64,000 bases of DNA from an uncultured Alphaproteobacteria bacterium (lineage in GTDB: Bacteria > Pseudomonadota > Alphaproteobacteria > GCA-2731375). A program made the position numbers and the translations under genes. The DNA is taken from assembly GCA_951812805.1 (NCBI GenBank), contig CATOSZ010000002.1, positions 333,111 through 397,110 of the forward strand, in the 5' to 3' direction. The notes under the pieces are model-generated. The model was given only the letters and a program-made list of their open reading frames with translations, searched no databases and was not told the origin of the DNA. Below, piece after piece: positions 4,818-61,310 of this stretch (the stretch's first letter is position 1; every line of letters starts with the position of its first letter).

Positions 4818-4852
4818 GGCAGGGTCGCGCTTCGGTGGCTCGGAGTGGGTGA

Positions 4853-6624: not shown

Positions 6625-6924
6625 TTGCGCTCCCTCGATGTGCCGGTGCTTCGCCACCACATCAATAATTTCGAGAATCGATATGGTGTTAATCTATATA
6701 AATTCAATGCATACTAATGCGCCCTGCTGTTTCAGGCACGGCGAGACGAAAGTCGATTCCTCCTCACCGGTAAGCAAGGCGTCGATATTCCCCTAAGCGC
6801 CTCCAGCGCGTGCAGTCGTGATTGGCGCCCATTTCCGTGAGTTCGGCGTCAGCTGATCGGCGATTTCGCTGCACGTGAAGGGGACGTATGCGACACTCCC
6901 GGGGTTCGCAGGAAAGGGAGCGGG

Positions 6925-8139
6925 ATGGATCGACGGATCGTTGTCATCGGCGGCGGGGTCGTCGGCTGTAGCGTCGCCTGGCATCTGGCGAGCCGCCAAC
7001 TCGGCGCGGTGACGCTGGTCGAGAAGGAGAGCCTGGGGGCCGGGACGACCTGGCATTCGGCCGGCAACGTCACCTGGAAGCCCGGCGGCGACCGTGACGC
7101 GGAGGTGCTTTACCTGCTCGACACCGTCGAGGGGTTGGCGCGCGAGGGCGAGCAATCGATTGGCTGGTTGCGCACCGGGCGGATGTTCCTGGCCCGCGAC
7201 GAGGAGGTTCTCGCACCGCTCCGCGACATGGCCGACGCGGCGCGGGCGCGCGGGTTCGAGACCGAGATGTTGACGCCCGAGGCGGCGGCCGGGCGACATC
7301 CCTTGTTGAGCCCTGCGCACCTCGCCGGGGTCTGGCTCAACGGCACATCCGGGCGGCTCGACCCGGCCGGACTGACGGCGGCCTATGCCCGGGCCGCCCG
7401 CCGGCACGGCGTCGAGATCGTCGAAAACTGCCGCGTCGACGGTATCGCGGCCGAGGGTGGTCGCGTGCAGGCCGTCCGGACCGACGCCGGGGACCTGCCG
7501 GCGGACGTCGTGGTGGTCTGTTCGGGTCTCTGGTCGCGCGATCTGCTGGCCCCGCTCGACGTGGCGCTCGCGCAATGGGGCTGCGAGCATTTCTACGTCA
7601 TCGCCGAGCCGGGGGAGCGCATCGCGCGGGAGACGCCGTCCTTCGTCTCACCCGCGGACCTGCTCTATGGGCGCGAAGACGTCGGCAACTTCCTCTTCGG
7701 CTGCTTCGACGAGGCGGCGGTGACCCTGGAACCGGGCGCCTTGCCGGATCCCTTCGCCTTCACCCTGCTGGACGCCAACTGGGACAAGTTCGCGCCCTAC
7801 TTCGAGAAGATCCTCGATTTCTTCCCCGCGCTGGAGGAGGCGCCGATCCGCCGCTTCGTCAACGGCCCGGAAAGCTTCACGCCGGACGGCCATCCGCTCA
7901 TCGGCGGGGTCGGTTCGATCGACGGCCTCTATGTCGCGACGGGCATGAACTCCCACGGCGTCACGATCTCGGCGGCGGCGGGACACAACATCGCCGACCT
8001 CATCGCCGGGGTGCCGCCGCGCTTCGATGCCGTCGACTACGACCCCGGACGTTTCGGCGCGCGGGCCGGCGACGTTGCCTGGCTGCGCGCCACGGTCGCC
8101 GATGCGCCGAGCGGTTCCTACCGGGAGAGCAATCTTTAG
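6925..8139 (+). CDS. FAD-dependent oxidoreductase (DadA / glycine-sarcosine oxidase beta family)
   Basis: MDRRIVVIGGGVVGCSVAWHLA... Rossmann GxGxxG motif, 404 aa. Confidence 0.8.
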   Translation: MDRRIVVIGGGVVGCSVAWHLASRQLGAVTLVEKESLGAGTTWHSAGNVTWKPGGDRDAEVLYLLDTVEGLAREGEQSIGWLRTGRMFLARDEEVLAPLRDMADAARARGFETEMLTPEAAAGRHPLLSPAHLAGVWLNGTSGRLDPAGLTAAYARAARRHGVEIVENCRVDGIAAEGGRVQAVRTDAGDLPADVVVVCSGLWSRDLLAPLDVALAQWGCEHFYVIAEPGERIARETPSFVSPADLLYGREDVGNFLFGCFDEAAVTLEPGALPDPFAFTLLDANWDKFAPYFEKILDFFPALEEAPIRRFVNGPESFTPDGHPLIGGVGSIDGLYVATGMNSHGVTISAAAGHNIADLIAGVPPRFDAVDYDPGRFGARAGDVAWLRATVADAPSGSYRESNL

Positions 8140-8199
8140 TTCGGATCAAGTTTGATCCGAAGTGGCCGGGGATCAAGCCAAATAATCTTTAGCCGAACC

Positions 8200-8991
8200 T
8201 CACGCGTAGGCCAGCAGACAATCCTCCCCCAGCGCCTCCAGCGGCGTGAAGTCGCGGGCCGCGTGGTATTCGGCGCGGGCGAAGGTTTCGCCGCGGTTGT
8301 CGACGGTCGAGACGTTGATGTAGAGCAACAGGCGGCGGAGCGGTGAGATGTTCACGCTGGAGCCGTGCACCACCGTCATGTTCATGAACAGCAGCGCGCC
8401 CTTGCGGGCCTCGATCGCCTCCAGCCCGTGGTTGTCGACCAGGCGGCTCATGGTCTGGGGTGTGATGTCGTAGCGGTGCTTGGCGGCACGCTCGTGGTCC
8501 GCCACGCCCTCGTCGATCACCGCTTCGGACACCATGCCCTCGCGCTGGCTGCCCGGCACGGCGAGCACCGGCGCGTTCACCGCCGTGACGTCGTCGAGGA
8601 AGACGGCGATCATGATGCCGTGCGGGCGCGGAATGCCGTCGATGCGGTGATAGGTCCCGTAGTCCTGGTGCCATTCGACGATGGAACCGCCGGTCTGCTT
8701 CACGTTGATCCGGCTTTGATGCACGAACACCTTGTTGCCGAGCAGCTGTTCCGCCGGCCCCAGGATCGCCGGATGGCGGGTCAGCGTGCCGAGGCGTTCA
8801 TCGAAGAGATGCATGCCCCAGCAGACGTGCGGGGCGCCGTCGGTTTCCCGCGCGACCTCCGGCCCGGTGCGCTCCAGCACCTTGAAGGCGGCCGTCTCCA
8901 ACACCGCGCATTCTTCCGCGCGAAGCGCGTCCGGCACGACGGTCCAGCCCTTTTCCTCGTACTCGCGAACCCGGGCATCGTCCAACTGCAT
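8200..8991 (-). CDS. Phytanoyl-CoA dioxygenase (PhyH) family 2OG/Fe(II) oxygenase
   Basis: 263 aa with the HQD...H signature (EWHQDYGTYH ... VVHGSSVN). Confidence 0.75.
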   Translation of the reverse strand: MQLDDARVREYEEKGWTVVPDALRAEECAVLETAAFKVLERTGPEVARETDGAPHVCWGMHLFDERLGTLTRHPAILGPAEQLLGNKVFVHQSRINVKQTGGSIVEWHQDYGTYHRIDGIPRPHGIMIAVFLDDVTAVNAPVLAVPGSQREGMVSEAVIDEGVADHERAAKHRYDITPQTMSRLVDNHGLEAIEARKGALLFMNMTVVHGSSVNISPLRRLLLYINVSTVDNRGETFARAEYHAARDFTPLEALGEDCLLAYA

Positions 8992-8995
8992 GGTC

Positions 8996-9769
8996 TCAAC
9001 CCTCCCCCTTCATGCCCTGGATGCCGTTCGCCAGCGCGCTCTGGAAAATACCGATGTCGTAGAAGTAGGACAGCATGCGGAAGCCGCGACCATGCCATTC
9101 CCGGCCCTGCGCCGGCGTGCCGACGAGGCCGGCGGCGGTCTTGCCGTGCTTCTCGGCCGCCGCGGCGATTTTGTCGATCCCGGCCTGCAGGTCCGGATGG
9201 TCGAACTGCCCCGGAATACCCATGGAGAGGGAGAGATCGGCATGGCCGAGATGGGCGACGTCGACACCCGGCACGGCCAGGATCTCGTCGACGTTGGCCA
9301 GGCCCTTGGCCGTCTCGATCAGCACGCAGACCATGGTGCGTTCGTGCGCGGCGGCCTTGGTGTCGGCCATCGAGGCCGAGCCGTAGTCGTCGTGCGCACC
9401 GCCGAACATGGCGCCGCGCTGGCCTTCCAGCGGATAGCGGGTCCAGGAGACCAGCTCCGCCGCCTCTTCCGCGCTTTCGACCATCTGGAACAGCAGGCCC
9501 ATGGCGCCGAGGTCGAGCAGGCGGGCGGTGTACTGGTAGGACTTCCCCGGCGGGCGGACCAGCGGCACCAGGCCGAGGCCGCGACAGAGCGCCAGCTGGG
9601 TCTTCATCTCCGACAGCGTGAAGCCCGAATGCTCCATGTCGTAGAAGACGAAATCGCAGCCGGCGTTGACCAGGATCTGCGGCAGGCCGGGACTGGAAAA
9701 TTCGAAGATCATTGTGCCGTGGGCGCTGCCGCCCTCGGCCAGGGTCTTTTTCACCGGATTGGCACGCAT
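8996..9769 (-). CDS. HpcH/HpaI family aldolase (2,4-dihydroxyhept-2-enedioate / 2-keto-3-deoxy-sugar-acid aldolase)
   Basis: MRANPVKKTLAEGG...LIETAKGLANVDEILAVPGVD... The start is moved to the internal ATG, which has a GGGAGGA RBS. Confidence 0.8.
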   Translation of the reverse strand: MRANPVKKTLAEGGSAHGTMIFEFSSPGLPQILVNAGCDFVFYDMEHSGFTLSEMKTQLALCRGLGLVPLVRPPGKSYQYTARLLDLGAMGLLFQMVESAEEAAELVSWTRYPLEGQRGAMFGGAHDDYGSASMADTKAAAHERTMVCVLIETAKGLANVDEILAVPGVDVAHLGHADLSLSMGIPGQFDHPDLQAGIDKIAAAAEKHGKTAAGLVGTPAQGREWHGRGFRMLSYFYDIGIFQSALANGIQGMKGEG

Positions 9770-9951
9770 GGTTTCATCCTCCCTCGCCCCGAATGCGGCC
9801 GGATCTTGGCCCGGATGCCGTACGACGGCAAGGTGCCGGACGGCGATGCGACGATCAAGACCAGCGGCAAGCGGCCGAAGGGAAGCTGTTGATGTCATAG
9901 CCCCGTCTGGGTCATGAAGGGGATCGAACTCGATCCCGTGACGGAGTTTTC

Positions 9952-15486: not shown

Positions 15487-17037
15487 CTAGCAGCCTGTCG
15501 GACTCGGGCATGCAAGGATTGGTAAGATTGGCTTGGCGGGCGTCGATGTCATGGATTTACCCCCATGAAGTTGCGAACGCGGGTTGGCCCGCCCGTTCAG
15601 GCGTGGCTGAGGACGAACATCCGCTTGATGTTCCAGGAGAGCGTGGCCAAGGTCCATTCCCCCTTCGCCTTGTCGAGGCCGCGCAGGCTGAACTGACGCA
15701 AGCCCATCACCGATTTGATGATGCCGAACACCGGCTCCGGCGTCTGCTTGCGAAGCGCGTAGAGCGCCCGGCCCTCGGGTGTGGCCAGGCGATGGCACAT
15801 CGCCTCGAGCGGCGTCGGATCCTCGGGCGCTGGCGGCGCCTCGGCGAAGCGGTCCCGCCAGGAAAGATGGTGGTGCTCCCGGCCGAGCGCGATCAGCGGC
15901 GCGATCTCCGCTTCCCCGCAGGCCTCGACGTTGGCCTGGCTGAAGTAGCCGCTGTCCGCCAACAGGGTCTCGACCTCGCCAAGCCCGTCCGGCAGGCCGG
16001 CGAGTGCTTCGAGCGTCGGTTCGATCTGCTGCTTGTCGTTCGCCGCCTGCACCACGTCGGCGCTGACCACCAGCAGGCTGCCGGCGGCCACCGCAGCCTG
16101 GGCGTTGTAGCACTGCTCGAAGCCGCCGCCGGCCACCGGCATGATGCGCGAGTCCGGGTCCGTCAGGTTGACCTGGTCCTTCGCCCGTGGCCCCGGCTCC
16201 GGCGGCTTCGGTGGCCGCCCGCCCGGCTTGCGGCCGGTCCGCGTTTCCTTCGCCTCGCGGGCTGCCAGCTTCTCTTCGTACTCCGCCTGCTCCCGCGCAT
16301 GACGCTCGGCCGCCCGCGCCTCGATCTCCGCCTTCGCCGCGGCGATCGCCGCCAGCCGGTCCTCGCGCCGTGCCAGCTCCTCCGGCACGCTCATGCCGTC
16401 GGGAACCTCGGACCGGTCCGCCGCTTCCGCCAACGCCATCAACTCCGCCACCTCGGCCCGCAGCCGGGCTTCGATCTCGCCCGCACGCTGCCACGACAGG
16501 GCGCTGTGCCGGCTCGCGTCGGCATGGATCTTCGTCCCGTCCAGCGCCACCGTGCCCAGTTGCAGCATGCCGGCCTGCCGCGCCAGCAGCAGAACCTGCA
16601 CGAACAGCCCCTCGATCAGCGGCAGGAAGCGACGGCGGAACGTGGCGATCGTGTCGTGGTCGGGGTGGTCGTTTGCCGCGATGAAGCGGAAGGCCACCGA
16701 ATCATAGCTCGCCCGCTCCAGCTTCCGGCTGGAATGCACCCCCGTCGCGTAGCCGTAGATCAGCAGGCCCAGCAGGACGCTCGGGTGATGCGCCGCCGAG
16801 CCCGAACCACGATAGGCCTTCACGAACGCAGAGAGATCCAGCTGCTCCAGCACATCGACCACGAAGCGCGCCAGATGACGATCAGGCAGCCATTCGTCCA
16901 CCGAAGGCGGCAGAAGATAGCTGGTCTCCCGGTCAACCTGTCGAAAGTTGCTCATCACAAAATCACCGCGCAGGAGAGAATCAGACCGTGACAGTGAATC
17001 TCATCTCGAAACTCGGCTCAAGTCCGACAGGCTGCTA
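15487..17037 (-). mobile_element. IS1182-family insertion sequence, copy 1 (~1551 bp, transposase on minus strand)
   Basis: Identical to 59759..61310 in inverted orientation. Terminal inverted repeats CTAGCAGCCTGTCGGAC. CTAG at both junctions. Confidence 0.8.
15597..16958 (-). CDS. IS1182-family (DDE) transposase, 453 aa
   Basis: MMSNFRQVDRETSYLLPPSVDEWLPDRHLARFVVDVLEQLDLSAF... is the typical IS1182/IS5-superfamily N-terminus. It is 100% identical to ORF 59839..61200. Confidence 0.85.
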   Translation of the reverse strand: MMSNFRQVDRETSYLLPPSVDEWLPDRHLARFVVDVLEQLDLSAFVKAYRGSGSAAHHPSVLLGLLIYGYATGVHSSRKLERASYDSVAFRFIAANDHPDHDTIATFRRRFLPLIEGLFVQVLLLARQAGMLQLGTVALDGTKIHADASRHSALSWQRAGEIEARLRAEVAELMALAEAADRSEVPDGMSVPEELARREDRLAAIAAAKAEIEARAAERHAREQAEYEEKLAAREAKETRTGRKPGGRPPKPPEPGPRAKDQVNLTDPDSRIMPVAGGGFEQCYNAQAAVAAGSLLVVSADVVQAANDKQQIEPTLEALAGLPDGLGEVETLLADSGYFSQANVEACGEAEIAPLIALGREHHHLSWRDRFAEAPPAPEDPTPLEAMCHRLATPEGRALYALRKQTPEPVFGIIKSVMGLRQFSLRGLDKAKGEWTLATLSWNIKRMFVLSHA

Positions 17038-17900
17038 GAGAGGCGTTTAAGCTGCGTGGCGACCTCAGCCGCCGCAGCTTTGGCCGATACGACTTCGTCG
17101 TTCAGCCGCCACAAATCACAGAGCGCGGCCACGATCTCACCCAATCCGGTCGCCCTAGCCTTGCACGCGGTATCGCGGCGCATCGGGTTCCCGCCAGAAG
17201 ACGTCGTCAGCATCGCGTCGACGAAAACATCGAAATTTCTCGTCTGCAGACTGCACCCTTTCACGAGAGACTTCAGGCTTGTCCTGACCCTTACGCGTTG
17301 TTTTTCTGGCACGCTGCCAATCAAGGAGTTCTGGAGTTCGTCCCGCGCCGCATCGCTACGCAAGTGCCGAAAATCTTCGCAGGTCGGCGTACGGCCCCTT
17401 AGAATCGGCCGCAGATCCTCGAATGGTTTGTGCGCCGCAACTGCAAAAATCAACCGTGCCGATGCGATCGCCTTCGATAGCATCCTGACCTGCCCGACCC
17501 GAGAAATGCCCAGCTCGCTCAGGCGCGTTCGTAGAACGTCAAAGCTTCCGTGGCCCAGCACGGAACAGAGTTCATTTCCACGCGCGGTTGTCGAATCCTT
17601 GTAAAGATTGAAGAGTCCGCAGTCCGTTCTGGCCTCGCCGACCAAGGAAACGAAACTGTCCTTACCGCTGAGCAAGGCGATCTTGTCGACGGTATCCAGC
17701 TCGCTCTGCCGGAGTCGGCCCAAGCGTTCGCGTCTCGTCGCGGCGAAGACATCCAAGTCAACTTTCGCCAGTTCCGTCTTTGCCTTCGTGGCTTCTTCGT
17801 CCTTGGCCGCATCATACAGGATCGTGGATCCGCAGCCGGCCGTGAAAATCGTCAGCGCCATGCAGAACGCCAAGTTAAGTCTTCGCATCAGAACCCCCAC
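17038..17900 (-). pseudogene. 5' portion (N-terminal ~287 aa, with signal peptide and lipobox) of the IS-interrupted lipoprotein gene
   Basis: MGVLMRRLNLAFCMALTIFTAG|C lipobox. The ORF stop at 17001 lies inside the IS, so the last ~12 codons are IS-derived. Confidence 0.5.
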
Positions 17901-50757: not shown

Positions 50758-52359
50758 CTACGCCGCGTCCTCGCGCATCATGTCCGAGCATTTCTCGCCG
50801 ATCATGATGCAGGGACCGTTGGTGTTGCCGGAGATCAGGGTCGGCATGATCGAGCCGTCGGCGACGCGAAGACCTTTCAGGCCGTGCACGCGGAGACGGT
50901 CGTCGACCACCGCCATCGGATCGTTGCCCATCTTGCAGGTGCCGACGGGGTGATAGGCCGTCTCGGAGCTGCGGCGGATGAAGTCGAGGATCTCGTCGTC
51001 GCTCTGTACTTCCGGGCCCGGCGCGATTTCCGGCCCGCGGAAGTCGTCCATCGCCTGCGTCTCGATCACCTCGCGGGTCTTGCGCACGCCGTCGATCAGG
51101 GTGCGCCGGTCATGCTCGTTCGAGAGGAAGTTGAAACGGATCTCCGGATGCACCATTGGATCGGCCGAAGCGATATGGATCGAGCCGAGGCTTTCCGGGC
51201 GCAGCATGTACATGGCGATGGTCATCCCGGGATCGGGGCCGAGCTCGCGCGTCTTGCGCAGGATCGCATGGAAGGGCACGAAATGCAGCTGGATGTCCGG
51301 TGTCGCCAGCTCCGGCCGGGTCTTCAGGAAACCCAGCACGGGCGCCGAGGGCAGGTTCAACAGGCCCTGGCGATTGATCGCATAGCGCAGAATTTGCAAT
51401 CCGAGCTTCCAGCCCCGCGCGGTGTCGTTGTAGACCACACCCCGCTTGGCGATCCGCCAGACTAGGCGCGGCGCCATGTGGTCGCGCAGGCTTTCGCCGA
51501 CGCCGGCGAGTTCGTGGCGCACCTCGATGCCGTGGCGTTGGAGGACCTCCGGCCGCCCGATGCCTGAAAGCTCCAGCAGCTGCGGCGAGGCGATGGCGCC
51601 CGCGCACAGCACCACCTCGCGCCCGGCCCGCGCCACCCGGGGCTGGCCGGCGACGTCGTATTCGATGCCGACGCAGCGCTTGCCCTCCAAGATCAGTTTG
51701 CGGCCGAGCGCCCGGGTTTCGATCGTCAGGTTCGAGCGATGGCGCGCCTCGCGCAGATAGCAGTAGTCGGCGCTCATCCGCCGGCCCTTGCGGATGGTCG
51801 TCTGGGTGCGGACGATGCCTTCCTGGGTGTCGCCGTTGTAGTCGTCGTTGGGGGCGAGGCCGATCTCCCGGCCGGCGGCGAAGAGGGCGTCGTAGAGCGG
51901 GCTCTGGTCGACGGCTTCGCTGACGTGCAACGGTCCACCCTGGGCGCGGAAATCGTCCGTGTGGTGTTCGTAGTTCTCCATGCGCCGGAAGACGGGCAGC
52001 ACGTCGTCGAAGCTCCAGCCCCGGTTGCCGAGCTGCGCCCAGGTGTCGTAGTCGAGCTGCTGGCCGCGCACGAAGACCAGGCCGTTGATCGAACTGGAGC
52101 CGCCGAGCACGCGGCCGCGCGGCACCGGGATCCCGCGCCCGTCGGTGCTCTCCTCGGCCTCCGCCCGGTAGCACCAGTTGGCGGCGGGATTGTCGATCAG
52201 CTTGGAATAGCTGATGGGAATGCGCGAGAGGGGGTGCTGCTCCGGCCCCGCCTCCAGCAGCAGAACGGAATACCGGCCGTCCTCGCTCAACCGGCTGGAG
52301 AGCGCGCAGCCAGCCGAACCGCCGCCGACCACGATGAAGTCATATTCACGACCATTCAT
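50758..52359 (-). CDS. GMC-family FAD oxidoreductase (choline/alcohol dehydrogenase-like), second paralogue
   Basis: MNGREYDFIVVGGGSAGCALSSRLSED... The start was chosen at the internal ATG. Confidence 0.85.
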   Translation of the reverse strand: MNGREYDFIVVGGGSAGCALSSRLSEDGRYSVLLLEAGPEQHPLSRIPISYSKLIDNPAANWCYRAEAEESTDGRGIPVPRGRVLGGSSSINGLVFVRGQQLDYDTWAQLGNRGWSFDDVLPVFRRMENYEHHTDDFRAQGGPLHVSEAVDQSPLYDALFAAGREIGLAPNDDYNGDTQEGIVRTQTTIRKGRRMSADYCYLREARHRSNLTIETRALGRKLILEGKRCVGIEYDVAGQPRVARAGREVVLCAGAIASPQLLELSGIGRPEVLQRHGIEVRHELAGVGESLRDHMAPRLVWRIAKRGVVYNDTARGWKLGLQILRYAINRQGLLNLPSAPVLGFLKTRPELATPDIQLHFVPFHAILRKTRELGPDPGMTIAMYMLRPESLGSIHIASADPMVHPEIRFNFLSNEHDRRTLIDGVRKTREVIETQAMDDFRGPEIAPGPEVQSDDEILDFIRRSSETAYHPVGTCKMGNDPMAVVDDRLRVHGLKGLRVADGSIMPTLISGNTNGPCIMIGEKCSDMMREDAA

Positions 52360-52436
52360 GCCATGGTTCCCCCCCACCCCGAATTCCGCCGTAATACTAC
52401 CAGCCCGTCGGAAGGGAGCCGAGGGGTGGCATGGGA

Positions 52437-55400
52437 TTATCCGCCCCATCGCAGGAGGGTCGTGTTGCCATATCCGATATCGCGCGCGATCAGACCCTCG
52501 AACCGGCCTGCCGGCAGCTCGACGATCCGGCCGAGATTTGGTTCGTAAAACCGGACATGTGTGATGATATCGTCCGCGTCGGCGACGATCTCTGTGACGG
52601 CGACGGCATGGTATTCACTTTCCAGTTTCAGAATCATCTTCACATCGTAGTCATTGCTCAGGGCCGTGCGGATGGCGCGCAGATTGATCCTTCCATTGTT
52701 CGACGGATCCAGCTCGGAGATCTTGGCCCCCAATGTCTGGGCGTATTCGCGCATTATCTTGTTGCTCGCCCCAAGCTCGGAAATGATTTCACCCAGTTCG
52801 GATGCGCTCAGCTGTTCATAGGGTGTGGCTTCGGCTTTCGTGCGAACCCCCTGCGTCACCTCGCGCCGTGCCTGTTTGAGCTTTATCCGCGCCGCGCGTC
52901 GGAGTCCGTCAACCTCGGAAATCAGGCGGCCGAGGCGTTTGTTCACGAGATAGTTGGTGGTCATGAGATTGCAGGTACCGCCCGCTTGGGGGCTGAAGAG
53001 CCTCGGGCCGCCTTCGTCGATGATCCGCACATTGTCGCCGTACAATGCCCGTGCCGTCGCCAGATCGCCCCCGGCGCCGGTGAGGTCGAGCTCATCGAGG
53101 AAGATGCCGTCTCCGGGCGCCGCCCGGCGGGGCGCGGCACAGACGGGGCTCCCCGTTCCCGGCGGGTCGCCCGCAAACCGCACGCGCGTCTGCGGCGCCT
53201 GACTGCTTTTCACCGAGCCGGGCAGGTCCGCCGTCACCCCCCCGGCCCCCTCGACCCCGGCCACGCGACGACCCTTGCCGGCGACATCGATCGTCTCGTT
53301 CGCGATCACCGGGGCACCGAGTCGATGGACGGCGGCGCGCGGGCCGCTGGCGCCGAAGCTGCGTGAAAGCCTGGCGCTGTTGAGATGGAGGAGCGTCTGT
53401 GATCCCAGGCCCACCGCAATCATCACGCGCCGCCATTTCGGTTGACGCTTGCCGAACTGATCCTTGCCGGTCAACAGCAGATAGAAATCGCCGGCCCCGG
53501 TGGCGCCGACATAGCCGTCGTACAATCCGAAGACGCCTTTCTCCGCTGCGATCCGAACGGCAGACGACGCCACGTCGGCGCTGGTATCGGCGATGACATA
53601 GCGCGCCAGCGCAGCCTCCGCCGGCGATGTCCAGGGGATCCGGTCCGCGGTCCCGATCGCATTGTTCCCGAGAGCTTCGCCGGTAATGCCTTCGAGGAAC
53701 GCCTGCATCAGCGGATTGAAGTAGCTGCCGTCGCGACGCGGTCGCGTGAGTGCGGTCGCCAGCGCCCTCATCTGCTCATCGGACATTTGCACGATCGAGG
53801 CTGCTCCGAGCACACTGCCGGCATAGCGCACCGGCGGCGCATCCTCGCCGAGATAAAGCTCACCGAGATTGTACTTGTGAAGGTCGGTGAGCTGCTCCGA
53901 TTGGCGCAGGCTCCAGTAGTTGGAGAGCTGCAGCCGCTTGCGATGCGCCGCCTCCTTCTGCGCCGGGGTGGGCGACGGCGAAGCGATAATGCCGGCATAA
54001 ATCGCCCCCAGTCGTTCAAAGCCCTGGCGATGGCGTACAAGGCCACGCTGAACCCAGGTGTCGTAGACGGGCAGGCGCTGGTAGGCGTCGCCAAAACGAA
54101 ACTCGACCACCTCGGCGTTATCGACGTCGATATCGAGCCGGGTTCCCTCGGCGCCGAAAATGCGCGCCAGCGAACCGAATGGCGGCGTCCGCTCACCCCC
54201 GGATCGTCGATCGGCGAGGCTTGCGGCCGCGACATGGGAATAGGTGACCGGGCGCAAGCCCACAGATCCAGCCGCCGTGAGCTCGAGCGTCGTCCCGTTG
54301 CCGGATCCAAGCGCCTTCACCTCCACCGTCAGGCTGGAGCCTTGTTCTTTCGCGACATCGTAGGGAAGGGTGACCTTCACCGTGAAGGTCTGATGCTTCA
54401 TCAGAGCTTCGAGCGGATGGGTCGCCGGATCGTGATCGGGGCGATTGAGGCCGACGCGAAGCACCGGCCGGGACCAGGTTTCGATGTCCAGACCCTCGTC
54501 CTTGGCCAGTTCGAAGCGAAGGGGCGTACCGTCACCATCGACCCAGGCCTCGCCCTCGCCCGCACCCCCATCGCCCTCACGCCAGCGCACCCGCCCGGGA
54601 TACCATTTCATCGAATAGCGCGGATCCGCCTCCGAACCGGCCTCGTCCAGCTCGATACGCCATTCGAGTTTGCCGTTTACCTGCTCGCGGGCCCATTGCG
54701 GGATGGCGCCGTTCATTTCATCGGGTATCGGTTTGTAGGTGAAGGTAACCCGGCCCTCGAGATTGCCGCGGCTCGGGTCGCCAACCTCGGAAGAGTGATA
54801 GTTGCCCTTCCAGACCCGGGTCTGCGTATGCGCCTCCAACCTGTTCGGGTAGGCCTCGAAATCAGGATCTTCCTGCACGATGACGAAGGGCCAGTCGCCG
54901 TCTTTCGTTGGTCGCCAAACACCGAGGGTTTTCGTCAACGACATCTTGAACGGCGCCGTTTCCTCCGGTTCCCCGACAGCCGTTTCGCGGTCGTCGGGGG
55001 GTGGCGGTGGCTTGTAGGCGATGATCGCCTTCAACCGGATTAACAAACCCTCGCCGTCCGCGAGTTTCGACGCGATCCGCTGGACGTCCGCCTCTTTCTC
55101 GCTTGCCGATGCGGCGTGCCGCTCGGCGCGGGCCGTACCGGCCGCGGCGTCACGGGCAAATTCCGCCGCCGATTTCGCGAACGTCGCCCGCGTGGCCTCG
55201 GCGTAGGTCCCGTTCCGCGCCTCGCGGCGCCAATGGTCCGCCCGCTCGCGGTTTGCCGCCGCATCGCTGCGCGCAGCGGCTTCGAGCGCGCGATAATCCT
55301 CCGCCTGCCTCCTGGCCGTCGCCAAGGCTGCGCGCTCATCGCCGAATTGCTCGTGCAGCCGGTCCCGTAGCGCCGCAGCCCGCGCTTTCGCCTGCCCCTG

Positions 55401-55559
55401 GTCGCGCCGCACTTCCGCTTCGAGGCGCGTAACCGCACGACTCTCCAATTCAAGCGACCGCGCGGTGGCGGCGTCGGGCAGCAACAACGTCAATAGGATG
55501 GCAAACGCCAGTTGACCGGCAGCCCGCGCCGTGGAGACGAGGCAACTGGTTGCGGTCAT
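52437..55559 (-). CDS. Large secreted hypothetical protein (1040 aa): signal peptide, ~150-aa Ala/Arg coiled-coil, poly-Pro linker, beta-rich core, C-terminal putative Cys/His module ending ...LLRWGG
   Basis: MTATSCLVSTARAAGQLAFAILLTLLLPDAATA signal. Arg/Ala/Glu heptad-like N-terminal region. ...PQAGGTCNLMTTNYLV... then ...EYHAVAVTEIVADADDIITHV... near the C-terminus. No recognisable family by eye. Confidence 0.55.
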   Translation of the reverse strand: MTATSCLVSTARAAGQLAFAILLTLLLPDAATARSLELESRAVTRLEAEVRRDQGQAKARAAALRDRLHEQFGDERAALATARRQAEDYRALEAAARSDAAANRERADHWRREARNGTYAEATRATFAKSAAEFARDAAAGTARAERHAASASEKEADVQRIASKLADGEGLLIRLKAIIAYKPPPPPDDRETAVGEPEETAPFKMSLTKTLGVWRPTKDGDWPFVIVQEDPDFEAYPNRLEAHTQTRVWKGNYHSSEVGDPSRGNLEGRVTFTYKPIPDEMNGAIPQWAREQVNGKLEWRIELDEAGSEADPRYSMKWYPGRVRWREGDGGAGEGEAWVDGDGTPLRFELAKDEGLDIETWSRPVLRVGLNRPDHDPATHPLEALMKHQTFTVKVTLPYDVAKEQGSSLTVEVKALGSGNGTTLELTAAGSVGLRPVTYSHVAAASLADRRSGGERTPPFGSLARIFGAEGTRLDIDVDNAEVVEFRFGDAYQRLPVYDTWVQRGLVRHRQGFERLGAIYAGIIASPSPTPAQKEAAHRKRLQLSNYWSLRQSEQLTDLHKYNLGELYLGEDAPPVRYAGSVLGAASIVQMSDEQMRALATALTRPRRDGSYFNPLMQAFLEGITGEALGNNAIGTADRIPWTSPAEAALARYVIADTSADVASSAVRIAAEKGVFGLYDGYVGATGAGDFYLLLTGKDQFGKRQPKWRRVMIAVGLGSQTLLHLNSARLSRSFGASGPRAAVHRLGAPVIANETIDVAGKGRRVAGVEGAGGVTADLPGSVKSSQAPQTRVRFAGDPPGTGSPVCAAPRRAAPGDGIFLDELDLTGAGGDLATARALYGDNVRIIDEGGPRLFSPQAGGTCNLMTTNYLVNKRLGRLISEVDGLRRAARIKLKQARREVTQGVRTKAEATPYEQLSASELGEIISELGASNKIMREYAQTLGAKISELDPSNNGRINLRAIRTALSNDYDVKMILKLESEYHAVAVTEIVADADDIITHVRFYEPNLGRIVELPAGRFEGLIARDIGYGNTTLLRWGG

Positions 55560-55583
55560 GACGCCTCCAAGGACGTGGCCCGC

Positions 55584-56954
55584 CTAGTCTTCGTCCGGCG
55601 CGGTCAATTCGACGGAATCGATAAAGAACAACGTCTCGCCGCTGGTCTTCTTGTTCTGGGCGACCGTCATGAAGATGCCGCCGGGAAGCCGGAGGGACGA
55701 AATGGCGTCGGTCTCATGAACGACCGGTTTGCCACTTTTATCCACAGCACCCTCGACCGTCAGCCGCGCGGAGAATTTGCGCCCGTCACGGACGAGGCTC
55801 AGCGTCATGGGACTGGTGATGGTTTGCGCAAAATTTGAAAATTGCCTATCCGGCGGGCAGACATTGCATTTCATGGCCCGGACTGTTTTTGAAAACTTCG
55901 TGGCTTTTCCCTTACTCGACTTTATGACTTGTAAAATTAGCTTGTGGCCATAATTCTTATTTCCCGAGGTGAAGAGGCGTGCGGCCAACCAGTTCTTGGC
56001 GTCCTTGCGCATGCCAAGCCAGATGCCTTCTTTCTGAGTCTGGTATTCTGCCTGAACCGTTGCCGATAACACCCAGTTGCTTTTTGGGGGCTTCACGTCG
56101 AGGCCAAAAAGGTTCGGTGTCTTCTTCCCATCGAAGCCGCCGGTTGTTCCAGCTACCATCAACAACTTATCATCCTCGACGATGAAGGCGTCGGGATCTG
56201 GATTGGTAACCGCCCATGCGCCGTTCAACTCGTCAACGGAGAAGTCGTCCTCGAATACGGTTTTGATCTTCGGCGCCGGCTTTGCGGCAACGACGGTTTC
56301 CTTTTTGACGGCCGCCAATGCCACTTCCAATGCGCCGGCATTCGCAGCGTCGTAATACTTTCCGTTCCCCCGCTCGGCGATGCATTCGAGTTGTGCGCGT
56401 TGATCCTTTCCGATGTCGAAGCCGACGACGTGAACCCGCGTATTGATATCGTCTTGCGCCAGTTTCGCCGCTTCCGCGCAAGGATCGCCACCACAGGTCT
56501 CGATACCGTCGGAAACCAGGACGATGCTGCGTGTGGTGTCGCTATCGGCGAGCATCGCGCCGGCGGCGGCGATCGCCGCGGCGATCGGTGTCTTTCCCAA
56601 AGGCGTGATAGCGCCGATCTTGCTCCGAATCGCATCTGTCGCATCGACGCCGATCGCGGAAAGAACTTCGATATCATCGCAGTCGGTCTTTGAGCGATGA
56701 CCATAAGCAACGATGCCGAGTTGCGTGCCGCCGGCGAGATCACCAACCAGGCCGGACAGCATTAATTTTGCCGTCTCAATCTTTGCGACGCCCTCGATTT
56801 GACCCCACATCGAGTTGGAACCGTCGACAATTAGAACGGTTTGAGCGGCGTTTGCCAGGACAGCCGCCGGTGCCGCCGTCGACAACAAGAGGGCGGCGGC
56901 AATCGTCCTGGTCATCACGCCGATACGTTTGTAATTCCTGGCCATCACACGCAT
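55584..56954 (-). CDS. Secreted von Willebrand factor type A (vWA) domain protein with MIDAS motif
   Basis: Signal peptide. ...VLIVDGSNSMWGQ... (DxSxS) ...IVLVSDGIETCGGDPC.... Its stop is 25 nt upstream of the 1040-aa gene start, in local ~50% GC sequence. Confidence 0.75.
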   Translation of the reverse strand: MRVMARNYKRIGVMTRTIAAALLLSTAAPAAVLANAAQTVLIVDGSNSMWGQIEGVAKIETAKLMLSGLVGDLAGGTQLGIVAYGHRSKTDCDDIEVLSAIGVDATDAIRSKIGAITPLGKTPIAAAIAAAGAMLADSDTTRSIVLVSDGIETCGGDPCAEAAKLAQDDINTRVHVVGFDIGKDQRAQLECIAERGNGKYYDAANAGALEVALAAVKKETVVAAKPAPKIKTVFEDDFSVDELNGAWAVTNPDPDAFIVEDDKLLMVAGTTGGFDGKKTPNLFGLDVKPPKSNWVLSATVQAEYQTQKEGIWLGMRKDAKNWLAARLFTSGNKNYGHKLILQVIKSSKGKATKFSKTVRAMKCNVCPPDRQFSNFAQTITSPMTLSLVRDGRKFSARLTVEGAVDKSGKPVVHETDAISSLRLPGGIFMTVAQNKKTSGETLFFIDSVELTAPDED

Positions 56955-57023
56955 CCCAGCCTATATTTCTTTCTAAGATAGCATTATCGAATGCTTCTGG
57001 AAGTTTACCCGCCAACCCGTTAC

Positions 57024-58254
57024 CCGGCAAGGCGCAGGGGAATCGCATTTGGAATTGCCTTGACGTGCGTGTTTGATCTTGAGGTATTGGCGCGAATCGA
57101 TTCTACCCGGTCTTTTCACGGGTGGAGGTTGCGATGGAAGGCTTTCTGGAGTGCTTTGAGGGTCTCGAGGATCCGCGGACTGGCAATGCCGGGCGTCACG
57201 ATCTGCTGGAGATCTTGACGATCGCCCTGTGCACGGTCCTCTCGGGCGGTCAGACGGCGGTCGACATGGCGATCTTCGCGCGTGAAAAGGAGGCGTTCCT
57301 GCGGGAATTTCTCGTACTCGAACATGGCGTGCCGAGCCACGACACCTTCAGCCGGGTGTTCCGGTTGCTGGATCCGGAGGCGTTCGGCGCCTGCTTCCAG
57401 CGCTTCATGGCGCGCTTTTCCGAGACCTGCCAAGGGGTCATTGCGATCGACGGCAAGGTGGTGCGGCGATCCTACGACAAGGCGAGCGGCACGTCGGCGC
57501 TGCATATGGTCTCGGCCTGGGGCTGTGATCAGCGGCTGGTGTTGGGGCAAGTCGCCACCGACGCCAAGTCCAACGAGATCACCGCCGTGCCGAAGCTGTT
57601 GAAACTATTGAGCCTCGAGGGGACGATCGTGACCGTGGACGCCCTCAATTGCCAGCGCGCCATCGCCAGCCAGATTATCGAGCAGGGGGGTGACTACGCC
57701 CTGGCGTTGAAGGGCAATCAAGGCACGCTGCATGACGACGTGAGAACCTTCCTCGACGATCCGAAAGCCGAAGCGACCACCACCGACACCACGGTCGATG
57801 GCGATCATGGCCGCATCGAGACCCGTGCCGCTCTCGTCTCCAGCCACGTCGAGTGGCTGCAAGAGCGCCATCATTGGCCGGGCCTGAAGGCGGTCGCCAA
57901 AGTCACCCGGACCCGCGAGTGCGCGGAGAAGACGTCGAGCGAAACCGCCTACTACCTGCTCAGCCAGCCGCTCGACGCCGAGCGCTTCAATCCCGTTGCC
58001 CGGGCGCACTGGGGGGTCGAAAACCGCCTGCACTGGTGCCTCGATGTCCAAATGAACGAAGACCAAGACAGAACCCGCAAGGACAATGGACCGCACAATC
58101 TCGCCGTCCTGCGCCACATGGCGCTCAATGTCATGCGAAAGGATCCACGAAAAGACTCGCTGCGCGCCAAGTTCAAAATCGCCGCTTGGAACAACGACTA
58201 TCTCCTGTCACTCCTCGGCAAATTCTGAAATGCGATTGCCCTGCGGCAAGGCGG
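57024..58254 (+). mobile_element. ISAs1-family insertion sequence (~1.23 kb)
   Basis: Imperfect ~27-bp terminal inverted repeats (CCGGCAAGGCGCAGGGGAATCGCATTT ... AAATGCGATTGCCCTGCGGCAAGGCGG) flank an ISAs1 transposase gene. Boundaries are approximate. Confidence 0.5.
57122..58228 (+). CDS. ISAs1-family transposase (H-repeat associated protein-like), 368 aa
   Basis: ...FLECFEGLEDPRTGNAGRHDLLEILTIALCTVLSGGQTAVDMAIFAR... and the DDE region ...TVDALNCQRAIASQIIEQGGDYALALKGNQ... are diagnostic of ISAs1 transposases. Confidence 0.85.
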   Translation: MEVAMEGFLECFEGLEDPRTGNAGRHDLLEILTIALCTVLSGGQTAVDMAIFAREKEAFLREFLVLEHGVPSHDTFSRVFRLLDPEAFGACFQRFMARFSETCQGVIAIDGKVVRRSYDKASGTSALHMVSAWGCDQRLVLGQVATDAKSNEITAVPKLLKLLSLEGTIVTVDALNCQRAIASQIIEQGGDYALALKGNQGTLHDDVRTFLDDPKAEATTTDTTVDGDHGRIETRAALVSSHVEWLQERHHWPGLKAVAKVTRTRECAEKTSSETAYYLLSQPLDAERFNPVARAHWGVENRLHWCLDVQMNEDQDRTRKDNGPHNLAVLRHMALNVMRKDPRKDSLRAKFKIAAWNNDYLLSLLGKF

Positions 58255-58286
58255 AATCGGTCGGACGATCAGGCGGGAGATACCCG

Positions 58287-59762
58287 ATGTTTGGGTTCAA
58301 GGGCGTGTGGCCATTGGCAATTTTGGCGATGTTCGCCTGGGACGTCGCGGCGGCGGAACAGGTTCCGCAGGATCTGGCGTCCCTGGCCGCGCGGCTTTAC
58401 CGGCTGTCGGGCGACGAGCTCGCCAAAGCCGGCGACGATGTCGAGAGCCACGCGGCGGCTCGGCTGGCCGGCGGCGCCATCCGGCGCGCCGGCGTGGGCT
58501 ATTGGGCCCGCGACAACGTGACGGTCGAAGGCGCCGGCGCCCGGGCAGCGAAGCTGTTGGGGCTCGACCTCGGCAAGCCCGGACACCGCGCCGAGCTCGC
58601 CCGATTGCTCAATCTATCGAGTGGCGAGCTGCGAGAGGCTTTGTCGGCGCGCCGACCGGAACTCGACGCGGCGTCGCTCGATGACCTGGCCAACAGCCTC
58701 GCCGCCACCCGCACGCCTGCGGACTTGGAAACCCGTCACACGATCGATCTTGGAGACGGCGAGACGGTGGAAATTTCCTGGGACACGGAGAGCGGAGAGG
58801 TTCTGGTTCGCGCGCGTTCGGATGGGACCGGCGAGACGCCGGCCTACGACGTCTCCCTGCTGGGCGGCGCGGAACTGCAAGTGGAACCCGATAGCGGGGA
58901 TCTACGCACAGCGCTGCGCAGCAACCCGGAAGAGGCGGTCCGCGTGCTTTCGGCCAGTGATCTCGAGCATTTACGCGGTTCCATTCTCGGCGATTGGCGG
59001 GCGGCAAACGGCGATGTCTATACGATTGGCGCCGGCGACGATGCGGCCGGTGACATCACGATCGCCGCGCAAGATTACAGCCAGCTGATCGAGGATGCCC
59101 AAGCGCAGCTCGAGACGCTCGAGCAGGCTATCGAGTATGTCTGGGAAAATTCGCAAACAGGCGGTATTCGCCGCCAGGAACGCTTTCGCCGGCTCGAAGA
59201 CCCATGGATCTACAAGGGCGAGGAGCAGCTCGGCGCGGCGGACATTGCACGTCTGGAGCAGCGAATAGCGGAACTCGAGGCGAAGCAGGCGGGCGCGGGC
59301 CTGCCACCGGTTCTCCGCCATGACCCGGTTGGACATGGCGAAAACCGCCAGGCGAATGGCGCGCGCGCCATTAGAATCGCGGTGCGCCGGTCCGACGGCT
59401 ACGGGTATTCCTATGATGATGCTTCCTTCAACGGCAGGACCGTCACGGCGCGGCGCACATACCGCGATGTCCGCGATATCGACCGGGATTTGCCGGAAAC
59501 GATAAAACAGCAGCTTATCGCCTCGTGGGCGCCGCCAAGCTGGCTGGAGCTGCAAGCGAGCTTCGATCCCACAACGGGGGAGGTACGAATGGTCGGCAAG
59601 AGATGGTTCTTGCACGTCACTTACGGCGGCGGTGGATTCTTCGGCGATGGCGCGGCGAAAGTTAAGAACCTGAATACGCCGTACGCCCGCCCTCTCAATC
59701 TTGGTAAGGACGGCGTGCGGACCCGCGTCGCCATGGGTGCCGCGGCCGATGCCGTTCCCTAG
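58287..59762 (+). CDS. Secreted acidic hypothetical protein (491 aa). Its stop codon lies in the CTAG junction of IS1182-family copy 2
   Basis: MFGFKGVWPLAILAMFAWDVAAA signal peptide. GGGAGA RBS. It ends ...AADAVP-TAG, where the TAG is part of the CTAG at the IS boundary. Confidence 0.5.
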   Translation: MFGFKGVWPLAILAMFAWDVAAAEQVPQDLASLAARLYRLSGDELAKAGDDVESHAAARLAGGAIRRAGVGYWARDNVTVEGAGARAAKLLGLDLGKPGHRAELARLLNLSSGELREALSARRPELDAASLDDLANSLAATRTPADLETRHTIDLGDGETVEISWDTESGEVLVRARSDGTGETPAYDVSLLGGAELQVEPDSGDLRTALRSNPEEAVRVLSASDLEHLRGSILGDWRAANGDVYTIGAGDDAAGDITIAAQDYSQLIEDAQAQLETLEQAIEYVWENSQTGGIRRQERFRRLEDPWIYKGEEQLGAADIARLEQRIAELEAKQAGAGLPPVLRHDPVGHGENRQANGARAIRIAVRRSDGYGYSYDDASFNGRTVTARRTYRDVRDIDRDLPETIKQQLIASWAPPSWLELQASFDPTTGEVRMVGKRWFLHVTYGGGGFFGDGAAKVKNLNTPYARPLNLGKDGVRTRVAMGAAADAVP

Positions 59763-61310
59763 CAGCCTGTCGGACTTGAGCCGAGTTTCGAGATGAGATT
59801 CACTGTCACGGTCTGATTCTCTCCTGCGCGGTGATTTTGTGATGAGCAACTTTCGACAGGTTGACCGGGAGACCAGCTATCTTCTGCCGCCTTCGGTGGA
59901 CGAATGGCTGCCTGATCGTCATCTGGCGCGCTTCGTGGTCGATGTGCTGGAGCAGCTGGATCTCTCTGCGTTCGTGAAGGCCTATCGTGGTTCGGGCTCG
60001 GCGGCGCATCACCCGAGCGTCCTGCTGGGCCTGCTGATCTACGGCTACGCGACGGGGGTGCATTCCAGCCGGAAGCTGGAGCGGGCGAGCTATGATTCGG
60101 TGGCCTTCCGCTTCATCGCGGCAAACGACCACCCCGACCACGACACGATCGCCACGTTCCGCCGTCGCTTCCTGCCGCTGATCGAGGGGCTGTTCGTGCA
60201 GGTTCTGCTGCTGGCGCGGCAGGCCGGCATGCTGCAACTGGGCACGGTGGCGCTGGACGGGACGAAGATCCATGCCGACGCGAGCCGGCACAGCGCCCTG
60301 TCGTGGCAGCGTGCGGGCGAGATCGAAGCCCGGCTGCGGGCCGAGGTGGCGGAGTTGATGGCGTTGGCGGAAGCGGCGGACCGGTCCGAGGTTCCCGACG
60401 GCATGAGCGTGCCGGAGGAGCTGGCACGGCGCGAGGACCGGCTGGCGGCGATCGCCGCGGCGAAGGCGGAGATCGAGGCGCGGGCGGCCGAGCGTCATGC
60501 GCGGGAGCAGGCGGAGTACGAAGAGAAGCTGGCAGCCCGCGAGGCGAAGGAAACGCGGACCGGCCGCAAGCCGGGCGGGCGGCCACCGAAGCCGCCGGAG
60601 CCGGGGCCACGGGCGAAGGACCAGGTCAACCTGACGGACCCGGACTCGCGCATCATGCCGGTGGCCGGCGGCGGCTTCGAGCAGTGCTACAACGCCCAGG
60701 CTGCGGTGGCCGCCGGCAGCCTGCTGGTGGTCAGCGCCGACGTGGTGCAGGCGGCGAACGACAAGCAGCAGATCGAACCGACGCTCGAAGCACTCGCCGG
60801 CCTGCCGGACGGGCTTGGCGAGGTCGAGACCCTGTTGGCGGACAGCGGCTACTTCAGCCAGGCCAACGTCGAGGCCTGCGGGGAAGCGGAGATCGCGCCG
60901 CTGATCGCGCTCGGCCGGGAGCACCACCATCTTTCCTGGCGGGACCGCTTCGCCGAGGCGCCGCCAGCGCCCGAGGATCCGACGCCGCTCGAGGCGATGT
61001 GCCATCGCCTGGCCACACCCGAGGGCCGGGCGCTCTACGCGCTTCGCAAGCAGACGCCGGAGCCGGTGTTCGGCATCATCAAATCGGTGATGGGCTTGCG
61101 TCAGTTCAGCCTGCGCGGCCTCGACAAGGCGAAGGGGGAATGGACCTTGGCCACGCTCTCCTGGAACATCAAGCGGATGTTCGTCCTCAGCCACGCCTGA
61201 ACGGGCGGGCCAACCCGCGTTCGCAACTTCATGGGGGTAAATCCATGACATCGACGCCCGCCAAGCCAATCTTACCAATCCTTGCATGCCCGAGTCCGAC
61301 AGGCTGCTAG
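59759..61310 (+). mobile_element. IS1182-family insertion sequence, copy 2 (~1552 bp), inverted relative to copy 1
   Basis: Same terminal inverted repeats (CTAGCAGCCTGTCGGAC...). Identical transposase and identical antisense ORFs. CTAG at both junctions. Confidence 0.8.
59839..61200 (+). CDS. IS1182-family transposase (identical to 15597..16958)
   Basis: 453 aa, 100% identical in sequence to the copy-1 transposase. Confidence 0.85.
   Translation: MMSNFRQVDRETSYLLPPSVDEWLPDRHLARFVVDVLEQLDLSAFVKAYRGSGSAAHHPSVLLGLLIYGYATGVHSSRKLERASYDSVAFRFIAANDHPDHDTIATFRRRFLPLIEGLFVQVLLLARQAGMLQLGTVALDGTKIHADASRHSALSWQRAGEIEARLRAEVAELMALAEAADRSEVPDGMSVPEELARREDRLAAIAAAKAEIEARAAERHAREQAEYEEKLAAREAKETRTGRKPGGRPPKPPEPGPRAKDQVNLTDPDSRIMPVAGGGFEQCYNAQAAVAAGSLLVVSADVVQAANDKQQIEPTLEALAGLPDGLGEVETLLADSGYFSQANVEACGEAEIAPLIALGREHHHLSWRDRFAEAPPAPEDPTPLEAMCHRLATPEGRALYALRKQTPEPVFGIIKSVMGLRQFSLRGLDKAKGEWTLATLSWNIKRMFVLSHA

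Follow-up and report, generated by a model that had tools for sequence, protein, structure and literature searches.

A conserved three-gene set of exported proteins with a predicted papain-like cysteine peptidase domain, a vWA-MIDAS protein and an orphan partner in an alphaproteobacterial genome

Introduction

The double-glycine leader peptidases of family C39, present in ABC exporters of the PCAT1, ComA and LahT type, carry Gln, Cys, His and Asp/Glu in that order. The same order is found in the C-terminal domain of a 1040-amino-acid (aa) protein, here called the large protein, encoded in a 64,000-nucleotide (nt) stretch of DNA from an uncultured Alphaproteobacteria bacterium (contig CATOSZ010000002.1, positions 333,111 to 397,110; this whole stretch is termed the window, and positions are counted from its first letter). 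The subject of this report is the set of three genes, or trio, formed by the large gene, a neighbouring gene for a von Willebrand factor A (vWA) protein and a third gene. The C39 signature resembles the local sequence H-A-V-x-V of the large-protein domain, followed after ∼17 residues by [FY]-[DE]-P-x-x-G. C39 domains are fused to the N terminus of an ABC exporter, whereas the large-protein domain is C-terminal on a protein that appears to be Sec exported, has no ABC transporter fusion and is ∼90 residues larger through helical insertions. Also unlike the C39 systems, no double-glycine peptide, leader-peptide or ABC exporter gene was linked to the trio in any locus.

A second group of related domains is found in toxins. 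Cpe1-type toxin domains resemble ComA and LahT (PMC12136450), which places the large-protein domain in the same structural neighbourhood. The Cpe1 and CdiA-CT toxins (PDB 9l5u and 8ssm) likewise have a C39-like fold located at the C terminus of a large carrier; their identity to the large-protein domain is 12 to 13%. These toxins are delivered by a type VI secretion system (T6SS) or by contact-dependent inhibition (CDI), and their genes precede a small immunity gene, whereas here there is a Sec signal, neither feature was found and the domain is conserved throughout the family. When examined for the features of polymorphic toxins, the large protein had no delivery-marker domain in Pfam or NCBIfam, the neighbours were unrelated metabolic or regulatory genes and no small immunity gene lay directly downstream of the large gene in the window or in three fetched loci (L001, L003 and L008). 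Staphopains (C47), IdeS, SpeB and xylellain are stand-alone zymogens with N-terminal prodomains, some of them having staphostatin inhibitors; unlike the large protein, none of the staphopain-type proteases is known to have a vWA partner or an 800-residue N-terminal scaffold.

Pairing of vWA proteins with peptidases has precedents. In the MoxR-vWA(DUF58)-transglutaminase (TgpA-type) and vWA-MoxR-VMAP systems, a vWA protein is reportedly paired with a papain-superfamily or other peptidase effector and a third protein. The vWA-MoxR systems are cytoplasmic or membrane anchored, whereas the trio components all have export signals, and no MoxR/AAA+ gene was present in the window region or in the examined loci with precomputed Pfam annotation. 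In complement factor B and C2, the metal ion-dependent adhesion site (MIDAS) of the vWA domain docks on the C-terminal carboxylate of a partner and positions a protease. The trio likewise brings together a MIDAS domain, a protease and a partner whose extreme C terminus is conserved, and a comparable assembly would be conceivable. The likeness is one of pure analogy: homology does not extend beyond the fold of the vWA domain, and the protease, which resides on a separate polypeptide, is a cysteine rather than a serine enzyme.

Results

Three exported proteins are encoded together. An earlier reading of the window, made without database searches (the sequence-only reading), had described a two-gene operon for a secreted vWA protein and a secreted coiled-coil protein. 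The open reading frame (ORF) list agreed with two codirectional minus-strand genes at the positions given below, but the unit proved to be larger, as a third gene on the opposite strand had been missed:

52437..55559, minus strand: gene for a 1040-aa exported multidomain protein (P0001; ORF call, Shine-Dalgarno sequence GGAGG)
55584..56954, minus strand: gene for a 456-aa exported vWA-MIDAS protein with a C-terminal concanavalin A (ConA)-like domain (Pfam VWA, VWA_2 and VWA_3)
58287..59762, plus strand: third conserved gene, for a 491-aa exported protein (P0159); in nearly all loci a homologue lies beside the large gene

The third gene came into view by comparison with L001, a metagenome contig whose large protein (P0002) is 75% identical to that of the window; a gene for a 492-aa protein without a Pfam match, 72% identical to P0159, is located there upstream of and divergent from the vWA gene. 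Linkage was assessed by running hidden Markov models (HMMs) of the three proteins on the stop-to-stop ORFs of all fetched loci. The trio was adjacent in 11 of the 13 independent loci with enough flanking sequence, all three genes being detected in the window and in L001, L003, L008, L010, L012, L015, L023, L025, L026 and L027; two of the three were present at a contig end in L007, L011, L013 and L024. Four gene orders were observed, including an overlapping operon of vWA, third and large gene, the order vWA, large and third gene, and divergent and convergent arrangements. Conservation of adjacency with a shuffled order is a classical sign of functional coupling. The named carrier genomes, from a contig scan with search patterns derived from a 12-sequence alignment, are metagenome-assembled genomes (MAGs) of Rhodospirillaceae, Dongiaceae, Kordiimonadales and other Alphaproteobacteria and of one Gammaproteobacterium. 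The unit is, hence, a conserved three-gene set of exported proteins and not a two-gene operon. A literature search found no description of such a trio.

The large protein ends in a papain-like peptidase domain. The sequence-only reading had guessed at a papain-like arrangement within the C-terminal ∼200 residues, and structural modelling bore this out. The relevant features are as follows:

52440..53108, minus strand: papain-like (C39-like) cysteine peptidase domain, residues 818 to 1040
52986-52988, minus strand: codon of Q858
52971-52973, minus strand: codon of C863
52608-52610, minus strand: codon of H984
52542-52544, minus strand: codon of E1006

Residues 818 to 1040 were modelled from a 36-sequence alignment with a mean local confidence score (pLDDT) of 90.7 and a global score (pTM) of 0.87. 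A Foldseek search of this model against the PDB returned as top matches only papain-like cysteine proteases and relatives of the same fold. The best match was a papain-like protease toxin/immunity pair (9l5u; E of 9e-5), followed by staphopain C (2e-4) and the CdiA-CT of Citrobacter rodentium (7e-4); IdeS, Josephins, PCAT1, calpains and AvrRpt2 were also among the matches. In the model, C863 (model residue 46) is the first residue of a central helix (46 to 59), H984 (model residue 167) lies within a strand (166 to 176) and E1006 (model residue 189) is at the end of a strand (182 to 189) adjacent to the His strand. Q858, at the position of the oxyanion-hole Gln, is 5 residues ahead of C863. The order and modelled placement of these four residues correspond to the canonical papain topology, with C863 and H984 as the conserved catalytic pair. 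On this structural prediction, the C-terminal ∼220 residues have a papain-like (clan CA, C39-like) cysteine peptidase fold. No C39-type Pfam model (C39, C39_2 and C70; PF03412 or the related PF13529 and PF11814) matched at an E value of ≤1 in 36 diverse family members, and the domain is therefore named C39-like in fold rather than a member of family C39.

Among the relatives bearing the domain, Q858 was conserved in 61 of 80, C863 in 66 of 82, H984 in 71 of 84 and an acidic residue at position 1006 in 81 of 83. The full Q-C-H-[DE] set was present in 55 of 84 representatives across a deep divergence (20 to 40% identity), indicating selection for catalysis. In 12 representatives the Cys was lost and the His replaced by Arg jointly, as expected of a functional dyad. 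All members of this subclade (P0066, P0067, P0074 to P0076, P0078, P0080, P0082, P0096, P0118, P0132 and P0136; an example is L010:3670-7629) share an extra tail of ∼310 residues containing the kinase-like motifs LGxGxxNxVF, DGHxxNF and FDPGG. An identification of this tail as a kinase was rejected, since only subthreshold matches were obtained (YrbL at 0.002 to 0.058; CDK7, N lobe, at an E value of ∼1). A second family of tails, of ∼170 to 250 residues and without a Pfam match, follows an active-type protease domain in 16 representatives, including P0004, P0005, P0019 and P0021.

Architecture of the large protein. Upstream of the peptidase, P0001 comprises, in this order, a signal peptide, a coiled-coil-like region, a beta-rich core, a helical domain and a disordered linker:

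55461..55559, minus strand: predicted Sec signal peptide, residues 1 to 33, ending in PDAATA ahead of RS (read from sequence)
54975..55460, minus strand: Ala/Arg/Glu-rich, probably coiled-coil region, residues ∼34 to 195, ending in KPPPPPDD (fraction of A, E, R, K, Q and L, 0.65)
53400..54962, minus strand: conserved core, residues 200 to 720
53109..53399, minus strand: Gly/Pro/Arg-rich, probably disordered linker tethering the peptidase, residues ∼721 to 817 (low model confidence)

The features that the sequence-only reading had pointed out (a signal-peptide-like N terminus, an Ala/Arg/Glu-rich region, a PPPPP stretch, GGTCNLMTT, EYHAVAVTEIV...DIITHV and an LRWGG end) were all present. A hydrophobic N-terminal segment was detected with a Kyte-Doolittle heuristic in 51 of the 58 full-length relatives. 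The coiled-coil-like region is poorly conserved and varies in length between relatives, appearing as an AERKQL-rich stretch of 100 to 200 residues. A model of residues 200 to 817 (pLDDT of 82.4) predicted that residues 200 to 500 are beta rich, including an avidin/calycin-like 8-stranded barrel, and that residues 500 to 720 form an all-helical domain; pLDDT fell below 50 in the linker at model residues 521 to 576 and 599 to 618. The GGAGG sequence sits 5 nt 5′ of the large-gene ATG and the gap to the vWA gene is 24 nt, one less than originally counted, making it plausible that both minus-strand genes are translated from one transcript.

No match to the large protein was found in Pfam, NCBIfam, PADLOC or PHROG models or among PDB sequences. 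When PDB sequences were queried for the large and third proteins, by single sequence and by family profile, matches were at chance level only, for example IF-3 at an E value of 0.005. An exhaustive profile search with residues 200 to 1040, counted as representatives of clusters at 50% identity, recovered 241 relatives at an E value of ≤0.001, of which 112 were at ≤1e-30. The impression of a tiny family given by a word-index search, which had found 5 relatives only, was thereby overturned; judged by these sequences, the family is moderately large but unannotated. The terminal Gly-Gly, singled out by the sequence-only reading, is incidental: relatives end in FDGK, KF, FSWA and the like or bear 150 to 370 extra residues, and a role as a ubiquitin-like or C39-substrate feature was rejected.

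At its end the large gene is overlapped by 13 nt (52437-52449) by the longest ORF of a GMC oxidoreductase gene (50758-52449). The true start of the latter is probably downstream and the overlap an ORF-calling artefact, since the Rossmann motif begins ∼30 residues in.

The vWA protein combines a complete MIDAS with a ConA-like domain. The identification of a vWA/MIDAS protein upstream of the large gene was confirmed, and a second domain was recognized:

56310..56843, minus strand: vWA domain, residues ∼38 to 215 (Pfam VWA, 1.2e-11)
55587..56282, minus strand: ConA-like jelly-roll domain, residues ∼225 to 456 (Pfam matches of homologues, alignment)

The MIDAS is complete (D44-x-S46-x-S48, T122 and D149), none of its residues varies among the aligned partners, and every vWA partner found has the D-x-S-x-S and SDG segments. 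Several Cys pairs were retained along with the MIDAS at every locus, including that with a dead protease. A separate conserved domain makes up the C-terminal ∼230 residues, and Pfam GH43_C2 (ConA-like) was detected in it in 3 of 9 homologues with a best E value of 6.4e-6; DUF1349 matched weakly (0.029) and the window copy had no Pfam match. From these sequence similarities, the ConA-like domain is probably glycan binding.

A stand-alone paralogue of the ConA-like domain was observed beside the trio in five loci (L008:5647-6366, L012:1093-1842, L013:4951-5826, L019:4019-4768 and L023:2636-4012). In this form the module has four genes.

The third protein has a conserved C terminus. P0159 has a signal-like N terminus and short coiled-coil-like stretches and was without a match in Pfam, NCBIfam, PADLOC, PHROG or PDB sequences. 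Its C terminus is conserved as A-x-G-A-x-x-[DE]-x-x-P-COOH (59700-59762 in the window), and 14 of the 17 distinct homologues end in Pro; the motif was represented in homologues from L001, L003, L007, L008, L012, L015 and L024 to L027. This pattern suggests that the tail may serve in docking or recognition. The possibility that the third and large proteins are paralogues was discarded on an hhalign probability of 0.2%.

The module is accessory. The GC content of the vWA gene was 56.5% (53 to 60% in 500-nt windows) against a window average of 67.1%; the original figure of ∼50% overstated the deviation. At third codon positions, a more telling measure, the vWA, large and third genes had GC contents of 68%, 76% and 75%, respectively, compared with 87 to 95% in their neighbours (the GMC oxidoreductase, peroxiredoxin and ispG genes). 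The flanking genes of the window and the fetched loci were unrelated from locus to locus: the large gene is followed by a GMC oxidoreductase gene in the window, a cupin gene in L001, a PfkB gene in L003 and a convergent third gene in L008.

The IspG protein of the window is 81 to 86% identical to proteins from MAGs labelled Rhodospirillales, Stellaceae or Alphaproteobacteria at NCBI. In the closest relative (L029, a 4.6-Mb contig), IspG is 97% identical, and synteny with the window, at 93% DNA identity, sets in just upstream of ispG. No trio was present there within 10 kb upstream of the syntenic stretch, a cluster of transposase genes being found instead. No protein 76 to 99% identical to the large protein was detected by a word-index search of a 5.8-billion-sequence collection covering the proteins of this relative. 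The low third-position GC, the unrelated flanks and the absence of an orthologue in the closest relative are indicative of transfer or of recent gain and loss. These sequence comparisons indicate that the module is accessory and horizontally transferred, as the sequence-only reading had proposed for the operon.

In L029, positions 4000-9900 upstream of ispG are packed with transposase genes (Y2_Tnp, DDE_5, DDE_Tnp_1_4 and an IS1182-like fragment). A hot spot for insertion upstream of ispG, common to the window and its closest relative, is suggested.

Insertion sequences and the divergent intergenic region. The operon had been described as bounded by ISAs1 and IS1182 elements. Both transposases are present, but neither element forms a boundary of the operon, as ISAs1 is located inside the trio and IS1182 abuts the stop codon of the third gene:

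56955..57033, no strand: left remnant of the divergent intergenic (promoter) region as it was before the insertion, with target-site copy GGCAAGGC at its end (57026-57033)
57034..58244, plus strand: ISAs1-family insertion sequence, transposase 57122-58228 (Pfam DDE_Tnp_1_assoc and DDE_Tnp_1)
58245..58286, no strand: right part of the original intergenic region, with the second target-site copy at 58245-58252
59759..61310, plus strand: IS1182-family insertion sequence, transposase 59839-61200 (Pfam DUF772 and DDE_Tnp_1_6)

ISAs1 is delimited by terminal inverted repeats (57034-57050 and 58228-58244), and the 8-bp sequence GGCAAGGC is directly duplicated on either side of it, at 57026-57033 and 58245-58252. 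After removal of the element and one copy of the duplication, the region aligned with the uninterrupted 143-nt intergenic region of L001. The duplication and the realignment identify ISAs1 as a simple insertion in the divergent promoter region of the trio. The insertion leaves ∼80 nt of this region in front of the vWA gene and ∼42 nt in front of the third gene and may, judging from its location, alter expression of one or both transcription units. A promoter and terminator scan found no excess of sites over shuffled sequence, and Rfam gave no match in the region.

IS1182 has 23-nt inverted repeats and starts within the stop codon of the third gene; as CTAG is repeated at both of its ends, the reading frame of this gene is intact. 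A composite transposon around the operon was considered and rejected, since the two insertion sequences belong to different families, ISAs1 has its own duplication inside the module and the partner copy of IS1182 is 42 kb away. This second copy, at 15487-17038, is inverted and 42.7 kb from the right-hand copy, and the pair could mediate inversion of the segment between them.

Elsewhere in the window, at 30991-31137, ARAGORN predicted a tRNA-Phe (30991-31066) and a tRNA-Ser(CGA) (31064-31137) that overlap by 3 nt. The tRNA-Phe had a low Rfam score of 39.7 bits.

Discussion

The large-protein family is a new sequence family of a known kind of enzyme, situated in a conserved trio that is not described in the sources searched. 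We consider it somewhat probable, from the sequences and the models, that the three proteins act together outside the cytoplasm, the MIDAS binding an acidic ligand, the lectin domain a glycan and the protease cutting an extracytoplasmic substrate. Under this proposal, the three exported proteins would cooperate in the periplasm or on the cell surface. The 1040-aa protein would be a scaffold bearing the papain/C39-like cysteine endopeptidase on a flexible linker of ∼100 residues; the 456-aa protein would couple a vWA-MIDAS domain, for metal-dependent binding, to a ConA-like domain that probably binds glycan; and the 491-aa protein would be a partner with a conserved C-terminal tail. The vWA/lectin protein could then position or gate the assembly through an envelope glycan and an acidic ligand, for which the tail of the third protein is a candidate, and the tethered protease would cleave a protein or peptide substrate outside the cytoplasm.

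Several points weigh against this proposal. We infer physical interaction of the three proteins from gene linkage only, and the large gene is without its partners in two loci with adequate flanks (L014 and L020 only). Signal peptides were assessed by visual inspection and with a hydrophobicity heuristic rather than a trained predictor, and the catalytic arrangement is known as residue order and as secondary-structure position in a predicted model. The third catalytic acid is Glu here, the usual residue being Asp; Glu is found in 8 of the 55 canonical members. Finally, the subclade with a dead protease retains the trio (L010), implying that proteolysis is not essential to the function of the trio.

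A more ambitious and doubtful form of the proposal is that the trio is an undescribed extracytoplasmic machine, in which the vWA-MIDAS/lectin protein docks on the GAxxDxxP-COOH tail of the third protein and on an envelope or target glycan and so assembles or activates the tethered C39-like protease. Such a machine would be a convertase-like cysteine-protease analogue serving a new form of Sec-dependent antagonism or surface processing, with a kinase-like domain replacing the protease in one subclade.

Of the other explanations, the one that survives best, and that we nevertheless think unlikely, is that of a toxin, interbacterial or anti-eukaryotic, in which the C-terminal protease of the large protein is the warhead, in the manner of Cpe1 and CdiA-CT, the vWA protein, the third protein or both being delivery adaptors or immunity factors. 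Cpe1-type toxins are structurally close to the C39 domains of ComA and LahT (PMC12136450) and such toxins are the best structural neighbours of the domain, which is itself C-terminal and located behind a disordered linker; relatives differ at the C terminus through two families of extra tails, and the module is mobile with a patchy distribution. However, all three proteins have putative Sec-type signals, no T6SS, CDI/two-partner secretion, Rhs, PAAR or type VII secretion system marker occurs in the large protein or nearby in any locus, and the large gene is not followed by any small conserved gene. Throughout the family the protease domain is orthologous rather than swapped as in polymorphic toxins, and the putative immunity proteins would be 450 to 500 aa long with binding domains of their own. 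PADLOC and PHROG searches were likewise without a match. A link to conflict and defence systems, raised by the sequence-only reading, gained no support: all three proteins have export signals and no secretion-system or immunity gene is linked; PADLOC-DB gave 0 matches at an E value of ≤0.1 for all three proteins and, as all components also appear to be exported, a defence system is without support.

Less likely still is a cell-envelope remodelling enzyme, that is, an endopeptidase associated with peptidoglycan, lipoproteins or exopolysaccharide and targeted to wall or capsule by the ConA-like/vWA protein. The glycan-binding type of the ConA-like domain and the apparent export of all the proteins would fit such a role, but none of the three has a recognizable LysM, SPOR, PG_binding or SH3b domain, the patchy, accessory distribution of the module is unlike that of housekeeping wall enzymes, and PeiR and Alr0975 are no more similar to the domain than C39 leader peptidases are. 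A nonenzymatic surface structure, such as an adhesin or S-layer-like protein in which the Cys/His arrangement is a relic, is very improbable: vWA domains are common in adhesins and one subclade without the Cys and His still has the trio, but Q, C, H and D/E are kept in 55 of 84 representatives at 20 to 40% identity, the S-layer match spans just a generic barrel of ∼100 residues, and the adhesin or S-layer family match and the core-gene status that the sequence-only reading had named as evidence against itself were looked for, with no such family match found and the genes not being core.

The findings have several implications. A family of at least 241 cluster representatives without a Pfam, NCBIfam or PDB sequence match gains a predicted enzymatic fold and candidate catalytic residues, and this family moves as a fixed trio with a vWA/lectin protein and a second orphan protein. 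The three genes can now carry domain labels in place of the annotation hypothetical. Exported vWA proteins are abundant in Proteobacteria and mostly unexplained, and for one group among them, partnership with a tethered cysteine protease offers a concrete hypothesis that can be put to the test. The trio would constitute a new Sec-dependent effector architecture if the protease should turn out to act as a toxin or in surface processing.

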